A stretch of DNA of 56,676 nucleotides, the filler included, from Sluysia triapertura (lineage: Eukaryota), in assembly GCA_046118255.1 (NCBI GenBank). It is 4 parts of 4 records of this genome, joined end to end, with 100 filler letters (N's around TTAATTAATTAA, not from the genome) between each part and the next. Parts side by side here need not be neighbours in the genome. Positions count along the whole stretch, not along the records: positions 27,689 to 43,326 come from JBJNIA010223242.1; 3 more parts are not named here. One strand, 5' to 3'. How positions within the stretch are numbered: position 1 is the stretch's first letter; each line of letters begins with the position of its first letter. Positions 21,100 through 38,590 of this stretch are shown piece after piece. The notes beneath the pieces were generated by a model. That model had not been told where the DNA came from and searched no databases. It was given only the letters and a program-made list of their open reading frames with translations. Position numbers and translations under genes: made by a program.

Positions 21100-22260
21100 A
21101 ACTTCAAAATACACTTCGTACACTATGTACAGGAACCACAAAACCTCTGAAAATGAAACAGATTACGATGATATGAAGGATGTGAAACAAAATGTACAGC
21201 GAAATAAAGATCTTGAAGCAATACAAAAAATAAATCCTATTGAACAGAAAAATTCGTATTATTTAAAGAAATATTATAATGGAATTTATCAAAGAATTTA
21301 TCCCTAAATGGTTTTACAGATATAGGATCACGAATGTTAGCAATTCGTTATAAAATTTTCTCGTAGAAAGAAAAAAATAGATAAAATGAAATATTTTGAA
21401 CGCGTAAATTGGGGAATAATAAATGCAAAATTTTTATAGCTAGAACAAAAATTCTAAATCACAGAAACGAAACAAAAAATCAACGCAATGGACGACTGTT
21501 TGAAGGATATAATAATTTGAATGGATATAATACGACAACTGAAAGACGTATGGAGACACATCCAAAATATAACCTCATGACATTAAAGAAGTTAGCAGAA
21601 ATTATATCAAACATAATAGATGTTATCATTAACGAAGACTGGTTGAAAGAAAAGAAATAAATTACATCGATGTAGGTGATATATTCCTAGAGTTGAACAT
21701 TGAAGATACAGATATAGAAGAACTGCCCGATTAATCATTATCTTTGCCTACAATAAAAGGTATTGAAAACTTAAGGAAGAATCACTGGCAAAACCTTAAA
21801 TGAAAAGCAAAAAATTAGTTATACTATCGATGTTACAAGAAACAGCGATCTAGTAAAAGGAGTCTTATCAGATTCCAGAATAGACAATTATCTGCTAAAA
21901 TACAATATAACTAATAAATTATTAACAGTTGTTCCAGCATCAAAAAGGGAGAAAATACTAACATTTTCATTATGGAAAATTATGAGGTCACCTTTTGACA
22001 AATAGAACAGTAGAAATAATCATAATAAAATATTATTGAAAAATTAGTAATTTTTGGAAAAGCCAGACACGAGGTTAATAAATATAATAGATTATCACCG
22101 ATAATTAATACTTCGAATCGAAATCTTACGTGACAAGAGATAAACCAATAGAGATTCTATCAAGAAGTATATTAATTATCGGAAAACTAATACAGGGATT
22201 AATTGAAAGCGCTCTAAATTGGATTCAACGAGCTGGCTTGTTTGAGTTTGTAAATAATTT
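21100..22260 (+). mobile_element. Heavily deleted Ty3/gypsy remnant (gag-like, RNaseH trace, integrase Zn-finger, post-integrase protease-like motif)
   Basis: LTVVPASKREKIL..HYGKL*GHLLTNRTVEIIIIKYY (~21920-22040) aligns with HDGQLGGHLLTRKTLSRINNKYYW of the element at 34080. LSRSILIIGKLIQGLIESA lies at ~22157-22213. Confidence 0.6.
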
Positions 22261-28672: not shown

Positions 28673-30407
28673 AATAGTCAAATTATTAATTAATTTACTA
28701 ATTTAGAACTGACAGTTAAATGGGAATATTCATAGAATATTCATAAATAAAGCAACTCTTAATTTTTAATTTTAATATTTTGTTTTGCATTTATAAATTG
28801 ATTTTACAGATACATCTATTTTGAGTTTCTATCTGAGACCCTTACTCTGAGTTATATAGATTAAACTTATATCTTTATTGCTTCTTTAGGCAACCTTAAA
28901 TTGATTATTTATGTGGAATATTTTAAAAAACAAATTATATTTTATTTTATTTTAGTTTATTATATATTTATTATATAAATTATAAATTATATATTTATTT
29001 TCTTTTTTTTGCTTTACATAATATTTAATTTAAAATTAATATTACTAAATAAATCAATTTATGATTGAATAAAACAATATTAAAATAATAATACTTTTAT
29101 GCAACCGATTTTAATTTACTAATAAATTTTGATGAGACACAATCAATATTACGGTTTATAAACAAAATTAATTGATTATTTCGAAATAATTTAATTAAAA
29201 CTTTTTTGGATAAAATGATATATAAATATATCAGTTTAGATATCAATATTGAAATTTAATATTTAATCAATGAATTTAAATAATTCAGTTTGGTTTTATT
29301 TAGCATAAGTTTACTCTTCGAGTATTTCGAATTTAAACTACTTAAATGATGATCATTTCAATTTGGTCAAAAATGATGTCAAAAACTAAATTAAATATAT
29401 TTTTAAATTTTAATAAATATTTGTAAGATTCGTTTTACATTGTTTGAATTGTAATTATTTCGAAAATTATTTTTGTTCACAATTATATATTATTTTATAC
29501 ATTATACATTATTTAATTTGTACTTATTACTGTTTTTATAAATAGTTTTAGTTTTATTAAATTATATTTACATATGATCGATTTTTCATGCGATATTCAT
29601 TAATATATTGTTATACATATTGATTATAGAAAAATATGCATACACAAAATCAATTACAAGCAAGCTATTTCGCGTGATTATGTTATTGTTATTATAATTG
29701 TTTATTATTATTTTATACATATGTGCTTGTATAATATCGATTTCATTAAAAAATGAGTTACTGAGTGCTAATTTGATATGATTTATAACAAACTTAAAAA
29801 GTACTTATTGGATTCTGATTTGCTGATTCTCTAATATTGTCCAGAATGTTATTATAATTATTATTAATTCTCTTTAATAATTCGAAATTGATATTAATGC
29901 GGCTTTCATCTAATAGAAAATAATTATTGGTTGGTTTCTTATTTTTCAAGAAACATCTTGTCTAACAAACATTCATTTTAGTCCATATTTTTATATCGTG
30001 GGTCCAAGTTGCAGTAAACGTCTTAGAGTATTGTGATGACATTTTCGATGGTTGTGATAGCAACGCTAACAACATTAAAGTTCACATTTTATTACTTACT
30101 AATTTGCGTAATATAACTTAATTTAGAGTTTGTTGTATTTGTAGAAACACAACTATAATCATAACTCTTCTACCTTTGCCAAGCAAGAAACGAGTCAAAA
30201 GAATTCACGATAACTCATAACTATAATCATAACATTTAATTCATCGATCTAAGACTATATCATAAATTTAAAGAAGTAAAGATAACAAATTTCAATAAAA
30301 TTATAAATCTATTATTATAATTATTATTATGATTATTATTATCATAATTATTATCATTATTATTATCATCATTATCATTATATTATTATTATCATTATTA
30401 TTATTAG

Positions 30408-30912
30408 ATGTATCTAAATTCACTGATGGTGTATGTAATCGTCGAAATATTCGAAACATTATACCCAAATCTGATTTAGAATATCTTCAAAAAACCGTAT
30501 CATCAAAATCATTTCTTAATAAATATAATCTTGCAATAGAATTAAGTCAAATATTTACGAAATATCTTCACATTCCAACCAATCAAATCATTCAGTCTGA
30601 TCAAGCTCTAAGAATAGTCAAATCGATTAAAGAAAAGTTCAAACATGTACTACAAACACCTTCATCGAAATACGGTGGAGTGGGATATAAGTTTCAATTG
30701 GAAGAATTAAATGAGTTACTAAATAAAGATACAGAATTGTATTGTTTTATTGAAGGATTGAATCAGTGTGCAAATTTGAAATTGAAGTTTATTGAAGCCA
30801 ACCGAAAGGAGAATTTGAAGGATCCTATTATACCAGGTACGTCAGTTGATGTGGAAAAATCTGTGGTACCTATTCAACATGTTAGTCATAAGAAGAACTC
30901 AGAAAGCACCTC
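30408..30912 (+). CDS. MPP5: PALS1/MPP5/stardust exon: L27N and L27C domains
   Basis: ttag acceptor and TC|gtaagt donor, phase-compatible with exon 35863. DLEYLQKTVSSKSFLNKYNL and LEELNELLNKDTELYCFIEGLNQCA resemble the two PALS1 L27 domains. Upstream exons are not identified. Confidence 0.7.
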
Positions 30913-31445
30913 GTAAGTAAACTTATGCTTTGTTTTAATATTTGTGGATATAATTATTTATCGCAACCCTTATTGGGCCATCTAAACCAATGATTTTTAA
31001 AACAATTTTGATTTATTAAAATTGAAATAGTTTTTTAATATTTGGTTTTGATTGGCTGGAATGAGTGAAAGTGATTGGTTTATTTTAGTATTTCAGGGAA
31101 CGATATTATTCTAATTCTGAGTTCGTCGATAGTAGGAGACTTAAAACTTACAATAGGCTCTCTTATAGGATTTTAACAAAATTATATAATAATCAGACTA
31201 AACTAGTACGTTGAAATTATTGATCAGATATACTTGCACAGAATAGTTGTTCTCAGAAAATCGATTACTTTATATTAATATCCAATTGAGTATCTCTATA
31301 ATTTATTACTATTATTTTTCTAAATTTTAAATGTGTATTTTATTATGAAATATTTTCTTATTTATTGTTGCCTTAAATGAGGATGTAGTCGTAATGCATG
31401 TTAAGCAAATACAAAGTAAAACTAACTGATGAAATTTGTAATCTG

Positions 31446-32470
31446 TTATAATGAGTAGACAATATTGGATTCGTATAATGGAGATGCCATTATAGGTGGT
31501 AATGGTGGTCCTGGAGGAGCAGAAAATCGATTAAATCTTGGAATTGAATAATGGTTATTATCATCATCATTAGGCGGTAAATTTGAGTACTTACACTTAT
31601 TCATGATAAACATCGTAATCATTAGTAAAGTGATGATTAATGCAGTAACGAATAATGTAGCCGCAATGATTAAAATTGTTAATGATTGATCCTTTTGTAA
31701 TGATTCTAAAATCTTTTAAGCTTTTTATTACCTTGTATTGCATAATGTAATTGTTTAATGATCTTAGTTTGATTTCTTATGAATATTATTATATGTCGAT
31801 CTTCAGAGAATAAGTAATCTTTACAAATTGCAACCGGATATTCCATATTAGGTATTACGTGTGCATAAATTTCCCATATACTAAAGTTTAATCTTATAGG
31901 GTTGATACATATATAATGTGCTTTAATATGTGTTTTAGTCATTTTAATTTGTACTTCCGTGTCATAATTGTAGAAATCGAAATATTTTGATCTATAAACT
32001 CTGAGATTCATTTGAAATTGTCATATATTATTAATTCCTATAATTCTATTGCATGTTATTATATAATACATGGTGAATAACATGCATCTGACAGTAAAAA
32101 CTAAAAGTGCTAATATGAGAATCTGCGTTTTTCTTAGAGTTGCATAATATATAGTTATTTATCTTGTTGGTGATATTATCTACTTCGTTTGTTGGTATTA
32201 AAATTTCTTGACGCTGATTGTATTGGAACACCTATCGTTGTTACGCATAGCGAAAGTTAATTAAGTAGTGTAATGAATGATTTATTAACGATTTAAAGTA
32301 AATACAATTTCAATTGTCCAGCGTTGATTAAAAATGTTAGGAAAATCTCCTGTTTAGTATTGGTGTATTTAGTCAAATGTGATGAATATGGACTACCATT
32401 GTTAATAATTGGATAAATAGTAATACAAAAGAAATAGTAATGTAAAGAAATTTATTATTCTTGATGCTTC
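31446..32470 (-). pseudogene. Env-like type-I membrane protein remnant
   Basis: N-terminal hydrophobic stretch KFLYITISFVLLFIQLL (~32400-32455). Cys-containing ORF fragments 32046..32231 and 31706..32011. TM LTILIIAATLFVTALIITLLMITMFIM (~31602-31682), then a Tyr/Pro-rich tail to a stop at 31446-31448. Confidence 0.55.
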
Positions 32471-32679
32471 TTATGAGCATTATACTAATATTGCTACTAC
32501 TACTATTATTGTTAAAAGTTACTACGCCGGATGTATTTGATTGAGAAGTTGATTTGGAGTTGGCGTCGAGTCTTGGGGATTTTGTGGAGAAATTTGATAA
32601 TTTTGCTGTGATGGTAATGGTGGTATTGCCCTTGTTATTTGAGGTAAAACTAGTTGCAGTAATACTACGTATGTACCCA

Positions 32680-32990
32680 ATGGTATTTTAAGAAAACCTA
32701 ATCTTCCATGTATTACAACATTTTCTAATTTACTAAATACATCCATTCCTATTATAACCTCATATAGACATCGGTCCGAAGCTAGTATGTAACAAATAAA
32801 TCTACATCTAAGATTGTTTAATTGACATTGTAAAATTCAATTACAGAAAATAATTGTAACATTAATTTCTAAAGCATTTAACATATTATATTTAATAATA
32901 GTATTATTCGAACCTGTATCTACAACAGATCTAACCCATCTTTGATTAAATTTAATACTTTGTACTAAATAATTTTGTATTTGAAAAAAA
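32680..32990 (-). pseudogene. Retropepsin-type aspartic protease located downstream of the integrase
   Basis: NYLVQSIKFNQRWVRSVVDTGSNNTII (DTG at 32912-32920) and CLYEVIIGMDVFSKLENVVIHGRLGFLKI. Confidence 0.8.
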
Positions 32991-35222
32991 ATGTTATCAT
33001 ATTTACCATACTTATCGGTTTAGGTGGTTTGTCTCTATCTTTAGTTCTTGGTTTGACTTTTAAAACACTTTTGTTACTTTTCTATCTCTTAAATTATCTT
33101 CATCTCTTGGCGCCTTTTTACAACGATTTACATGTACTACAAATGTTTCAGCCTTTGTATCGTTTGGTTTTTTAATATATAAATTAGTAGAAGTCGTTTT
33201 CATTACTTCATATGGTCCTTTAAATGGTTTATGAAGGCAAGTATCTTGGTTTTGCTGTTGGATAATCTACTAAAACTTTATTTCCTATTTTAAAATTATG
33301 CTCATTTGTCTTTTTATCCTAGATATTTTTATAAGTTTCCTGCGTATAACGTATTTGTAATCCGACACGTTTCCATGCATCTTGTAGATTTTCCCTCATA
33401 TTCTGGAGTTTCTATATACTGTGATAAAGGTGTAATCCAATCTAGATCTACTGGCATGTTTGAATGCCTTCCATACATTAAAAAGAATGGTGTAAAATTA
33501 GTAGCAGAATGCACTGAATATCTATATGCGAATAAGCATAAATCCCAGTCTTTTGCCTTTCGTTTACGTATGACTGTAACGTGTTTATTAGTGTTCTATT
33601 AAATCTTTCCACCAATCCATTTGTTTGTGGATGATATGGAGATGTATATATCTTTGTAACTGATTTTATCGCGTCGCTACTAAAATTGGTTCCTTGATCA
33701 GTTAATAGCTTTCTTGGAGTCCATAACTATATATTAATTTTTCTACTAAAATTTGCGTCACAATTTCAGCTTTCTGATTCGGAATCAAATAAGCTTCTGG
33801 CCATTTTGTTAAGTAATCAATAAATACTATTATATATCTGTTTCCATTTATTGTTTCTGGCAATGATCCCATTATATCCATTGCAGTGAATTCCATTGGT
33901 GAGAGTGGTACCGGCATTGGTTTTAATGGTACTTTTGTTTTACTTCCTGTGTTTTTTCTTCTACAACAAATAGTACAATTCTTACACCAATTTTTAATAT
34001 CCTCTTCCGTATTATCCCAATAATATTTATTATTAATTCTAGACAATGTTTTTCTTGTTAATAGGTGTCCACCCAATTGACCATCATGATATTATATTAG
34101 TAATGGCGTTATTAAAGATTTTGGTACAATCGTTTTCCTCTCATCTTTTGAATATACCATCTGTTATTGATAACTTTTTTGCTTGATCTTAATTTAACAA
34201 GCCTTTAGAATTGCTTCAAATGCATATGACATTTCTTCATCTTCTCTTTGATGTTTTATTATTTATTTTGGTTCTTCTACTGAGATTGACATTATTTGTA
34301 TGAAATTTGTTTCATATCAGTGTTAGTTAATCGAGACATACAGTAGGCACCATTGTTAATTGATCCTGGTTTGTAAATTATTTGTAAATCGAATTCTGCC
34401 AATTTTGTGAACCATCTATTTAATCGACTTACTTCATCCCTGTGGTTATACAGATACGTTAACGGTTTATGGTCCGTATATAAAAATACCTTTTGTCCTA
34501 ATAAATAGTGTCTAAACCATTTACACGCATACACTAATGCCAAACATTCTTTTTCTATTGTTAGGTAATTCATTTCCGCTTTATTTAATCTTCTACTTGC
34601 ATAGGCTATTACCCCTTCTAAGTTTTCTTTATTTTTTTGTCCCAGGATTGCTCCTATCGCAAAATTACTATAATATAATATCAATTGTTAATATAAACGG
34701 TTTACTCATATCTGGAAACATTAATTTTGGTGCAGTTGTTAATTTTTTCTTTAATTCAATAAATGCCTTTGTTTGTTCTTCGGTCCATTTAAATATTACG
34801 TTTTTCTGAGATAACATTTTCAAAGGTAGAACCTTTTTAGCAAAATCTTTCACAAATCTTTTGTAATAATTTGCTAATCCTAAAAAGCTTTGAATTTTCT
34901 TTACACTATATATTAACCTTTGAACATAAAGAGGAGAGATCCGACAAAGAAATTAGTTATTAATAAAATAACAAATTGATATTAATTTTTTTAGCTACAA
35001 AGAGTAGAGAAATACTTATTCGTAGTCAGTTCTGTGGATACGTCCACTTTACGTTGTAAACCGTAACGTACAGACGAACCCGATTAATCTTCATAATTAA
35101 ATAAATAAGTTTATTAACAATCTGAAGCCAGTCCAACCTAATATAAAACATTAATTACATAATTTATTAATATATCAAGTTACTTACTTTTCATATTCAT
35201 AACTATCATACATTCTTCTTAA

Positions 35223-35288
35223 CCCCTTAATGCATAATTTTAAAAAACCGTGCATGCCCGTGTTAATACGTTTCTGCGCGTTAAGGGG
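35223..35288. mobile_element. 66-bp piggyBac-type MITE
   Basis: TTAA|CCCCTTAATGC...GCGTTAAGGGG|TTAA. Confidence 0.75.
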
Positions 35289-35862
35289 TTAATGCAAAGT
35301 AGCGTTGCATATGTTTAAAACACTCTATTAAAAATGTAATTTTATTCTTTCATTGTTTTTACAAATGATATTTTTAGTACGTTAATAAATACATTGATTT
35401 ATTTAAATACTTAATTAATATCGATTAATTCAGTTACATATTTATATGCAATAAGAAATGTATTTCGCGCAAAAAATATTTTCTTGATTCACGATAAATA
35501 TTCATTTTCCCTAATTACAAACATCATCTAACTAATCATCGATTTTCGTACGTTAGATGATTTAGATCTTTTGGTTAAATCAATTTTTGCTTGAATAATG
35601 ATTTCATTTAAATTAAAATTATGTCAATATGGAGTCTGAAACAGAAAATTTTCAAATTCAATTTGTATGCATTTGTGCATTTGGAGACATACATAGCTAC
35701 CAAAAACTATTTATTGTATGATAAAAATGAATCCTTGGATTGTGTCGACAAAGCAAAGTTTGAGAATCTGGTTAAAATCCACTAATAAGTTCAATATTAA
35801 ATCAAAAATAATGTATAATTATCTTGCTGGAAAGCATTATCCAATTAAAAATTAATTTTCAG

Positions 35863-35989
35863 AAAAGAACTTGCACCTGTCACTAGAACCATCAAATCTC
35901 ATATTCCGAACTGTTATGCATTAATTCATGATACTGAAAGCGGCATACCAATCAAAACTGTTGTCTTGGAAAAAGGAAAACAACCATTG
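35863..35989 (+). CDS. MPP5: PALS1/MPP5 exon: linker and start of PDZ
   Basis: ttttcag acceptor and gttagt donor. ...GIPIKTVVLEKGKQPL joins in frame to GATVRNE. Confidence 0.85.
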
Positions 35990-36822
35990 GTTAGTTTTTA
36001 TTTAGCAAGTAATAATAACATAATAAAAATCATTACTTTTTTCAAATTCAGATTCACATTTATTGTGCTGATACCATTAGCATTAATATTTAGTAAAATA
36101 TTATTATTGCTCATTAATATTGGATGTATTGATTTATTATTTATTATAACATAGGTAATAAAATTTGACATTTATTTTTGATTTGTTTAATAACAATGTT
36201 GTACCATTTTTAATGTGTGCAATGTAAACAATGATTAAACAGCCATAATGATATTACACTTAATGTTCTATTTTTAGCAAATAATTATTGTATTTTCTTT
36301 TTTCATAATGTTAGTATATTTAAATTTGGATATTACTTAATAAAATATTCTATCTTCATTTATTTTCTACATCTTTATCTGAATATTTGTTATTAAAATG
36401 TAAAAGTAAATATGTAATGCTGGCAAGAATCTTTTAAGATATTTAATTTATAATTATTTTAAAAATTATTAAATGTGGAAACCTATTGAAAATCGTTTTA
36501 AATCAACAAAACATTATTCAGCAAAAGTTTTATAATTGAATTGATATAAATAAGGATATCATAATTAGACGAAGAACTTAAGTACAATAATGGAAAGAAA
36601 ATAAATCAAAAATTAAAAAAGAAAAGGAGAAAATGAAAACAGGAAGCAACATAAGATAAAATTGATTGGTCAATTTAGATGGATGTTAAGTTTGAAGATT
36701 AATGACTTTTAATGAATGAAACTTGTAAATATTAAAATGTTTTCAATATGACTATGATGACGATATTGATGATGATGATGATAAGGATATTATATTACAA
36801 TTAATAGTAAATTTATTATCAG

Positions 36823-37177: not shown

Positions 37178-38590
37178 GTTCGTTTTGTATTATGATTATG
37201 ATTATTATGATTGTTATTATAATTATGATTATTATTATCATTATTATTATCATCATAATTATTATTATGATTATTATTATCATTATTATTATAAAAATGA
37301 AAAATCGAATACTTGATTTATCAATGATCGTTTACGCTTGAGATTGGATCGCTGTCCAATTCCAAATAATGAAATAAACACCAACAAGCGACCAGATTTT
37401 GTTTGTAATAAATTTTTTTGTACAATTACAAAAAAGCATCAAAAAGAAACGTCATCGAAATCGTTGATATTAGATATTAAAGTAGATATTAAAAATTTTA
37501 TTCGAAAATTATTATTGTTAGTTGATTCCATAGTAATTGTAATTTTTGCACTACTCCAAATGTACAATTCATCATCAAAATGTTTGGTTCTAAATCAATA
37601 ATCACTTTTTTTGTCTTCGTTTTTAATCTTTAGTATACGAATTTATAAAAAAAGTGTGCTGGAAATCGATTTTTAAACTCTACGCTGCCTACTTAAACCA
37701 TTTTCATGAACAATCCTTTACTGTTCATAGACGTTTTTCCATATAAATATCATATTTGTCTTTAGAATTAAATTTTATAAATGTCAGATTAACTTTTATT
37801 TACGCAACCCTTTTTTTAAAAATAAACATTTGGATAAAATTTTATCTTTCGAGGAGCTAAATGTTGGAAAGGACCCGAGTGTTTAACTCTGTAACGGAAT
37901 AAAAAAAATAATTGATACTTGGGGTTTATATCTTTATTGAAGGAAAATAACTTCTAGTATTTCTCCAGGGAAAATAAAAGAAGTATATGTAACATTCGTC
38001 TATTTCGACCATTAATTTAAATGTTATATATAACTAACATTGGTACACTAAAAGTTAAGTTGGATTTAAAATGTTTGTGAGTACATTAAATTTAAATTTT
38101 AAAAAATGGAAACATAAATGAAGGAAAATAAATATGGAACGTAAGAAATTAATTAGCAAATCAAAAAGATTACCAATCAAACGGTAACGAATCAAAAAAT
38201 GAATATTAATTCCAGTCAATACTAAATCAAATGTTCTTAATATAAAATCATTTTAAACTTAGTCTTTATTTTGATATATCTCGGTAGCATTTCAAATTCT
38301 TTAAAATACAAAAGATTCAGAAAGTACTATTGTGAAAAGATAAGGTATACAATACAAGTATACCTTCATCTCTCTCTGCTCGCGATCCAATTCAACAGTC
38401 GAAACCGTTTTCAATGTGAATGAGTCATCAGCTCCATGACACATCTTATCATCTACACTAATTCATTCATCATTATCAAAAAGACTGGCTTGTGTACATG
38501 CGACAAAATAGCCTCGTTCATAACTTATGGCTGGGTCTCCTATCGGTGTTTCGTTGCTCTCTGATTAAATATTTGAAGATAGATCTTCCT

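Follow-up and report, generated by a model that had tools for sequence, protein, structure and literature searches.

A retropepsin lies behind the integrase (INT) of a Ty3/gypsy element in the DNA analysed here, a stretch of 56,676 nucleotides from Sluysia triapertura (assembly GCA_046118255.1; four parts of four records joined end to end, hereafter the window). The feature is a decayed, 5'-truncated copy that preserves the 3' portion of a giant Gag-Env-Pol element, and its domains run on the minus strand from the end of the reverse transcriptase (RT) through RNase H (RH), INT and the retropepsin to a signal-like segment and a transmembrane (TM) segment with a tail. In intact relatives such a protease is often carried in addition to the canonical one, and we lean towards the view that this extra retropepsin helps to cut INT free of the signal peptide that follows it. 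We call the canonical protease PR1, the one behind INT PR2, a copy between the fusogen and PR1 PR0, and a copy behind PR2 PR3.

Both hallmarks of a retropepsin (clan AA, family A2-like), D[TS]G and a downstream hydrophobic-hydrophobic-G-x-D/N motif, are present in the window. The DTG that the first-pass annotation had placed at 32912-32920 reads GAT-ACA-GGT from 32920 to 32912 on the minus strand, and 3' of it on that strand stands IIGMD at 32755-32741, with its G at 32749. In a Pfam scan run on single-frame pieces of the window, gag-asp_proteas matched the DTG piece at 32837-33019 (E 3e-4, under the curated cut-off). A profile of the canonical proteases of the clade described below ranked this piece first (independent E-value, iE, 1.8e-5) and the IIGMD piece second (iE 0.006) among 2,375 stop-free window pieces, the two lying in the correct order. 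Motifs and profile ranking thus confirm a retropepsin after the integrase, with no second RT behind it. Only about 66 codons separate the end of INT from the catalytic Asp, which leaves no room for an LTR (long terminal repeat) or a gag between them; a nested or tandem insertion is ruled out by this gap, by the lack of an LTR and by the lack of a second RT. The window protease is 13-15 codons shorter than its counterparts (DTG to IIGMD, 57 versus 70-72), and the signal-like segment lies 157 codons after the catalytic Asp, versus 154-172 in four relatives. Spacings and linker agree with those of intact PR2 carriers, and the hydrophobic Met-containing stretch of the linker, like that before PR2 in relatives, is a candidate cleavage site.

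The N-terminal piece of the window protease scores best on the PR2 profile (26.6 bits versus 22.1 for PR1 and 23.0 for PR0, a difference that does not assign it to PR2 over PR0), and the C-terminal piece scores best on PR1, so that the protease has no firm class. Its closest single match is the PR2 of the metagenomic contig L008. Of 14 queries from upstream or accessory regions compared with the window by tblastn, the only one to match was an accessory protease of P0021, which fell on the PR2 site (E 0.011), and a search of the whole library with the frame from protease to ectodomain gave one match, of an unrelated repeat type.

A protein search with the INT piece returned relatives at 62-67%, and a metagenome scan six long contigs (L007-L012) at 59-64%. 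Three of the six (L008, L010 and L012) encode INT, a protease and, further on, signal, ectodomain and TM in a single open frame; L008 and L012 also have a canonical protease before RT. With P0015, P0027 and P0011 removed as duplicates, the clade comprises 27 non-redundant elements, 26 of them with sequence behind INT (P0005 ends inside INT). They are giant elements with a single open reading frame (ORF) of up to 4,057 amino acids (aa). In a tree of the thumb, RH, INT and C-terminal blocks, the window copy is nested in the clade with a support of 100 versus outgroups, as sister to the truncated P0005 (100) and next to P0028 (82), which has no PR2. PR2 carriers fall in three further groups; being scattered over the tree, and with P0028 lacking the domain, they make the trait a patchy one. 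A second protein search yielded 95 new proteins, no closer relative and no record of Burro, a planarian giant gypsy element. Three of the 95 have a protease after INT, are multi-RT gene models of tandem elements and were excluded from the count; also outside the 26 are P0165 and P0170, which have a fusogen and no PR2, and P0218, which is cut at INT. Among viral contigs nothing matched the window INT, and four distant RT matches (27-29%) were not used. Two clade members, L005 and P0031, are filed publicly as proteins of bacterial metagenome bins, most likely through contamination.

The first-pass annotation had suggested that this may be an enveloped lineage with a relocated or second protease. 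The second protease has held up as a lineage trait, as 11 of the 26 non-redundant relatives carry an in-frame PR2, 46-75 residues after the end of INT. All 11 retain D[TS]G and a spacing of 70-72 residues to G-x-D/N, all 11 are detected by a profile of canonical proteases only (iE 4e-14 to 2e-19), which finds no other tail, and Pfam agrees in the relatives scanned. Relocation can be set aside: PR1 is kept in all nine PR2 carriers that reach far enough upstream, and PR2 is therefore additional. As for the other two, the L010 contig starts with the C-terminal half of PR1 and P0016 begins after it. A canonical protease precedes RT in every relative that reaches there; this region is lost in the window copy. 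INT and protease share a frame in the intact relatives, where the membrane protein is in that frame as well; in the window copy the frames differ. A conserved hydrophobic stretch, which we take to resemble a type of retropepsin site, lies ahead of each PR2.

Proteases are also found elsewhere in these polyproteins. Ten of the 15 long relatives have one or two further protease-like domains behind the fusogen TM, which with PR1 and PR2 makes three proteases in seven elements (P0017-P0023), and P0016 has three protease-like domains behind INT alone. Outside the clade a protease follows INT in one protein of 101, P0064. This is an unrelated Gag-Pol-chromo-Env element, whose retropepsin (aa 2672-2774) stands behind the TM of a gB-type fusogen and is followed by another hydrophobic segment.

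PR2 is old, because it is never closest to the PR1 of its own element; identity between PR2 subgroups is 25-35%. In a protease tree, 19 canonical domains stand opposite the accessory ones (support 92 under LG, 78/82 under a mixture model), which is suggestive of separate canonical and accessory lineages. PR0 and PR2 are mixed there, and PR2 monophyly was neither recovered nor rejected (approximately unbiased test, p-AU 0.078). Between L008 and L010, PR2 shows a nonsynonymous rate (dN) of 0.29 and a synonymous rate (dS) of 1.02, hence dN/dS of about 0.29; RT, RH and INT show 0.01-0.05, rough values as synonymous sites are near-saturated. One could argue that PR2 is a tolerated, drifting duplicate, redundant with PR1 and with no job of its own, given that it is missing in 15 of 26 relatives and that copies without the catalytic motif exist (PR3 in L008, L010 and P0016, PR0 in P0024). 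We consider this improbable, however, as drift fits poorly with a catalytic motif retained in 11 of 11 domains across such diverged subgroups, with the dN/dS and with the age of PR2. The PR3 copies lie directly behind PR2 (L008 aa 1384-1484, L010 aa 1246-1346, P0016 aa 1192-1290) and are constrained (dN/dS about 0.3); PR3 may form a single-chain pseudo-dimer with PR2 or serve as a regulator.

The protein behind the protease was described earlier as Env-like, a likeness that now extends to topology only. Every one of the 15 relatives whose ORF extends more than 600 aa upstream of PR1 encodes a gB-type fusion protein (PF24664) within that ORF, between Gag and Pol, so that the proposed order RT-RH-INT-PR-Env gives way to Gag-Env-PR-RT-RH-INT-PR-membrane protein. 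The membrane ORF behind INT is probably not the fusogen: it did not show the long ectodomain and fusogen profile or fold of class I/III viral fusogens. A signal-like segment follows INT or PR2 in 25 of 26 relatives, 23 of which also have a TM in the same ORF. In relatives the ectodomain is built of repeat units some 110 residues long, of which an iterated profile (its own members included) detects 37 in 21 of 23 stretches. A model of two repeats from L011, with a predicted local distance difference test score (pLDDT) of 79, matched FNIII tandems best (E 5.6e-8; TM-scores 0.3-0.4 over the tandem), and in the ESM Atlas the P0003 tail led to FN3 proteins at 0.81-0.86, a lead only. These relatives are thus predicted to make a type I membrane protein with FN3 folds.

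The window ectodomain is harder to place. The clade repeat profile matched neither its pieces nor P0028, the window TM piece had no significant pairwise match to P0028, and the ESM Atlas gave low-recognition, unrelated clusters alone for the ectodomain piece. A single-sequence model of the piece 31709-32002 (pLDDT 53) resembles FN3 cytokine-receptor domains with Z 6-6.7, a level that beta-sandwich matches commonly reach. Position, size, topology and this weak model hint faintly at an FN3-like ectodomain. It is very hard to credit that the ORF is instead a fusogenic Env, with a protease moved to process a Pol-Env precursor. Signal, ectodomain, TM and tail do occupy the usual env place of Metaviridae (PMC7879559), and the PR1 and fusogen of the window copy itself are invisible with its 5' part lost; yet the ectodomain has only some 236 codons, relatives carry FN3 repeats in it, the gB-type fusogen is upstream in 15 of 15 and PR1 is kept in nine of nine.

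The membrane protein varies among relatives. L009 (aa 1583-1780) and P0003 (aa 45-235) have a second signal-FN3-TM cassette upstream of PR1, the cassette having been duplicated within one polyprotein. In the tails of P0029, P0030, P0032 and P0033 the ectodomain is swapped for a small Cys-rich domain or an Ig domain (PF13927), with signal and TM the same.

A local accident, in which recombination or mis-assembly joined a fragment of a second element (accessory protease and membrane protein, taken from the region that separates fusogen and PR1) behind the integrase, would also produce what the window shows. In its favour, the nearest tailed relatives are without PR2, L009 carries protease, signal, FN3 and TM upstream of PR1, the profile scores hardly separate PR2 from PR0, and among the zero-difference contigs listed none spans 33000. 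We nevertheless regard it as quite improbable. Depth was taken from one DNA run that shares 0.64 of the window's words and may be the source sample, hence non-independent. Summed contig depth is not copy number, and we read it solely as the mark of a highly repeated family to which the protease belongs. Most flanking bins have 20-140; RH and INT reach 24,000-215,000, the INT end with the linker 92,788, the protease 36,693 and the spacer 7,043. Across INT, linker and protease the depth stays thousands-fold above the flanks, 92,788 and 36,693 comparing with 20-60 there. Other contigs connect 32956 to 33008 and 32978 to 33032 across the linker-protease border, a zero-difference contig covers 31959-32614, and spacing and linker are those of intact PR2 carriers.

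Our preferred reading, release of INT from the signal peptide behind it, is suggested by the layout of the intact ORF, which runs Gag, gB-type fusogen, (extra protease), PR1, RT, RH, INT, (extra protease), signal-like segment, ectodomain, TM and tail. Judged by hydropathy, such a polyprotein would cross the membrane several times. An in-frame env ahead of Pol, together with an internal signal past INT, would leave the Pol block held to the membrane at both ends, by the fusogen TM in front and the signal peptide behind. Accessory proteases in cytosolic loops beside these anchors would release Pol, perhaps earlier than PR1 and before particle assembly activates it; the canonical retroviral protease acts at particle maturation. 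Domain order, the single ORF, intact catalytic motifs and constraint are observed in the relatives; protease activity, cleavage site and topology are predictions. In the multi-pass polyproteins of flaviviruses and alphaviruses, the host signal peptidase cuts on the luminal side of an internal signal and the viral protease on its cytosolic side. Should the model hold, the clade would resemble them, with unrelated proteases and genomes and as an analogy only. A broader version, possible and put forward tentatively, is that two protease lineages split the work in a multi-pass polyprotein, the accessory ones freeing Pol at synthesis and the canonical one maturing the particle, and that a second virion glycoprotein, made of FN3 repeats, partners the gB-type fusogen in entry, just as herpesviruses pair gB with receptor-binding proteins.

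Several observations weigh against release of INT as the role of PR2. The window's nearest tailed relatives, P0028 and P0002, are without PR2 and P0005 ends inside INT, so the window's own subfamily yielded no intact member. Summed depth, 1,800-3,800 across the remaining membrane ORF, drops to 61.5, near single-copy, at 32170-32436, and the link between PR2 and the ectodomain is therefore unsupported by other copies in the run. Fifteen of 26 relatives manage without PR2, which makes accessory proteases optional. P0020 has PR2 with neither signal nor TM behind it, and in L008, L010 and P0016 400-800 residues of cargo (the dead protease copy, ankyrins) separate PR2 from the signal peptide, so that PR2 is not always next to an anchor. 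Finally, PR2 evolves about ten times faster than RT and RH, like cargo or conflict proteins.

This last point agrees with an unlikely but serious contender, that the extra proteases are cargo directed against host proteins (antiviral, apoptosis or silencing factors) and come off the polyprotein in the way that its ankyrin, RING and DEDD exonuclease cargo does, with polyprotein processing left to PR1. Patchy presence, changing position, the up to three copies behind INT in P0016, the ankyrin, RING and DEDD exonuclease neighbours and the description of Burro, in the available text, as rich in apoptosis and ubiquitin domains (PMC6431247) all suit cargo. It accounts less well for the narrow distance of PR2 behind INT, for the conserved hydrophobic stretch in front of it, and for the placing of each accessory copy in a predicted cytosolic loop of the same polyprotein, mostly beside a membrane anchor. 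As to the cargo itself, ankyrins are found in P0009, P0010, P0016 and P0024 (the window copy has no room for them), and L007-L012 have one or two separate ORFs after the polyprotein, of a mutually related DEDD exonuclease family; L007 also encodes a RING protein. In L008 (8767-8944) and L010 (8368-8488), short tandem repeats with a shared GGTAGGAGGC...CGCCCCAAA-like core lie close before the DEDD ORF and are a possible signal for subgenomic RNA.

The window copy itself is dead, all of its domain pieces being disrupted by stops and frame changes (Table 1). It belongs to Ty3/gypsy (Metaviridae) by its RT-RH-INT order and its gypsy-type RNase H and integrase; Pfam matched RT_RNaseH_2 at 34668-34952 (E 2e-9), RT_RNaseH at 34292-34687 (E 6e-32), Integrase_H2C2 at 33702-34091 (E 5e-15), rve_3 at 33478-33726 and Integrase_p58_C at 33060-33266 (E 4e-6). 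The 5' truncation reported earlier is borne out: it lies near 34910, with nothing of the RT core, Gag or fusogen upstream, and of RT the thumb end alone remains. No second RT, RT core, Gag, fusogen or canonical protease was found elsewhere in the window, no long direct repeat (LTR) in its flanks or in five, possibly collapsed or cut, contigs, and no match to an Rfam family or tRNA.

Table 1. Features of the decayed element, in window coordinates
Feature	Position	Strand	Remarks
RT thumb/connection end	34680..34907	-	42-53% identity to relatives
RNase H	34313..34669	-	PF17917 E 6e-32; 54-58% to P0002-P0005
Integrase: HHCC, core, GPY/F C-terminal part; several frames	33110..34130	-	62-67% to nearest proteins
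Basic linker; ends in hydrophobic Met-containing stretch, contains frame changes	32975..33109	-	
Accessory retropepsin (PR2)	32735..32974	-	DTG and IIGMD; stop and internal shortening
Low-complexity spacer; Pro/Gln/Thr-rich in one frame, Ser/Thr/Asn-rich in another	32451..32734	-	
Predicted internal signal-peptide-like hydrophobic segment	32391..32450	-	Hydropathy 2.6 over 15 residues
Broken ectodomain, about 236 codons	31683..32390	-	Piece 31709-32002 gives a weak beta-sandwich model
Predicted transmembrane segment	31614..31682	-	Hydropathy 2.7 over 21 residues
Cytoplasmic tail, some 55 residues; PPGP stretch shared with P0003 and P0004	31446..31613	-	

The surrounding DNA is AT-rich and of animal type (GC about 0.25), and RRM, SH3, chromo and CCCH genes lie in its vicinity. 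On the plus strand, single-copy open frames flank the element (30299-30916, 35849-36154 and 37317-37601; no Pfam match); they may represent exons of a single host gene that has the element in an intron. Just upstream of the truncation point is a repeated stretch, where a 74-nt element at 35219-35292 with inverted ends (TTAA-CCCCT...AGGGG-TTAA; 15 nt, 93%) resembles a piggyBac-type footprint. A weak tblastn match at 21811-22051 on the plus strand (RH-INT spacer and integrase zinc finger, E 0.009) is perhaps another heavily decayed gypsy fragment.

Among known elements, the closest in plan are Burro and GYPSM1, planarian giants with env in frame between gag and pol, ankyrin cargo and one named PR (PMC6431247). 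The clade shares with them a huge polyprotein, the Gag-Env-Pol order, ankyrins, accessory ORFs, very high copy number and an AT-rich genome, as far as the accessible text describes them (PMC6431247). It differs in that this text has only one PR, located ahead of RT, and is silent on any protease behind INT or second membrane protein, and in size, which was compared by description (2,600-4,057 aa in the clade versus 4,873-5,140 aa). Burro and GYPSM1 are also described there with MATH, BIR, BCL2-like and SUMO-like cargo and a length of 25-30 kb (PMC6431247); none of these four families appeared in Pfam scans of the relatives scanned. Errantiviruses with the order GAG-ENV-POL and an HSV/gB-type ENV (HSV, herpes simplex virus) have been reported from Platyhelminthes, Bryozoa and Nematoda in the portion of PMC13524379 available, and have their gB-type env between gag and pol as do all 15 long relatives. 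Six Schmidtea env rows of its supplement share short motifs with the clade fusogen; by eye, and for env motifs only, one motif occurred in 11 of 131 proteins and another in P0028 only. A flatworm host for the window is a guess from this match. That paper uses 'protease' a single time in its main text and nowhere in seven readable supplements, its main text lacks the words 'fibronectin' and 'ankyrin', and its authors state that other ORF arrangements were not looked for (PMC13524379). Canonical Metaviridae have one protease and an env downstream of INT as a separate gene (PMC7879559). The clade resembles them in the PR-RT-RH-INT core of Pol and in a membrane protein downstream of INT, and differs in its upstream fusogen, single ORF and up to three or more protease domains. 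The accessible parts of PMC6338049, PMC11410931 and PMC8532177 add nothing on extra proteases. In the literature searched, nothing on a second protease or an FN3 protein came up for gypsy elements; the Repbase reports and the original Burro and nematode papers lay outside it, and earlier notice is possible.

LTR retroelements and retroviruses have been described with one protease in a fixed place. Here, an entire clade has two to four protease-like domains per ORF, on both sides of Pol, together with a conserved second membrane protein behind the integrase. For annotation, this means that a membrane ORF after INT is not necessarily env, and that a protease after INT is not necessarily a nested insertion. 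It also raises the question of how RT and integrase leave the membrane when env lies in frame between gag and pol, as in Burro. If the broader version above is true, these elements would use a flavivirus-like multi-pass strategy hitherto unknown among retroelements.

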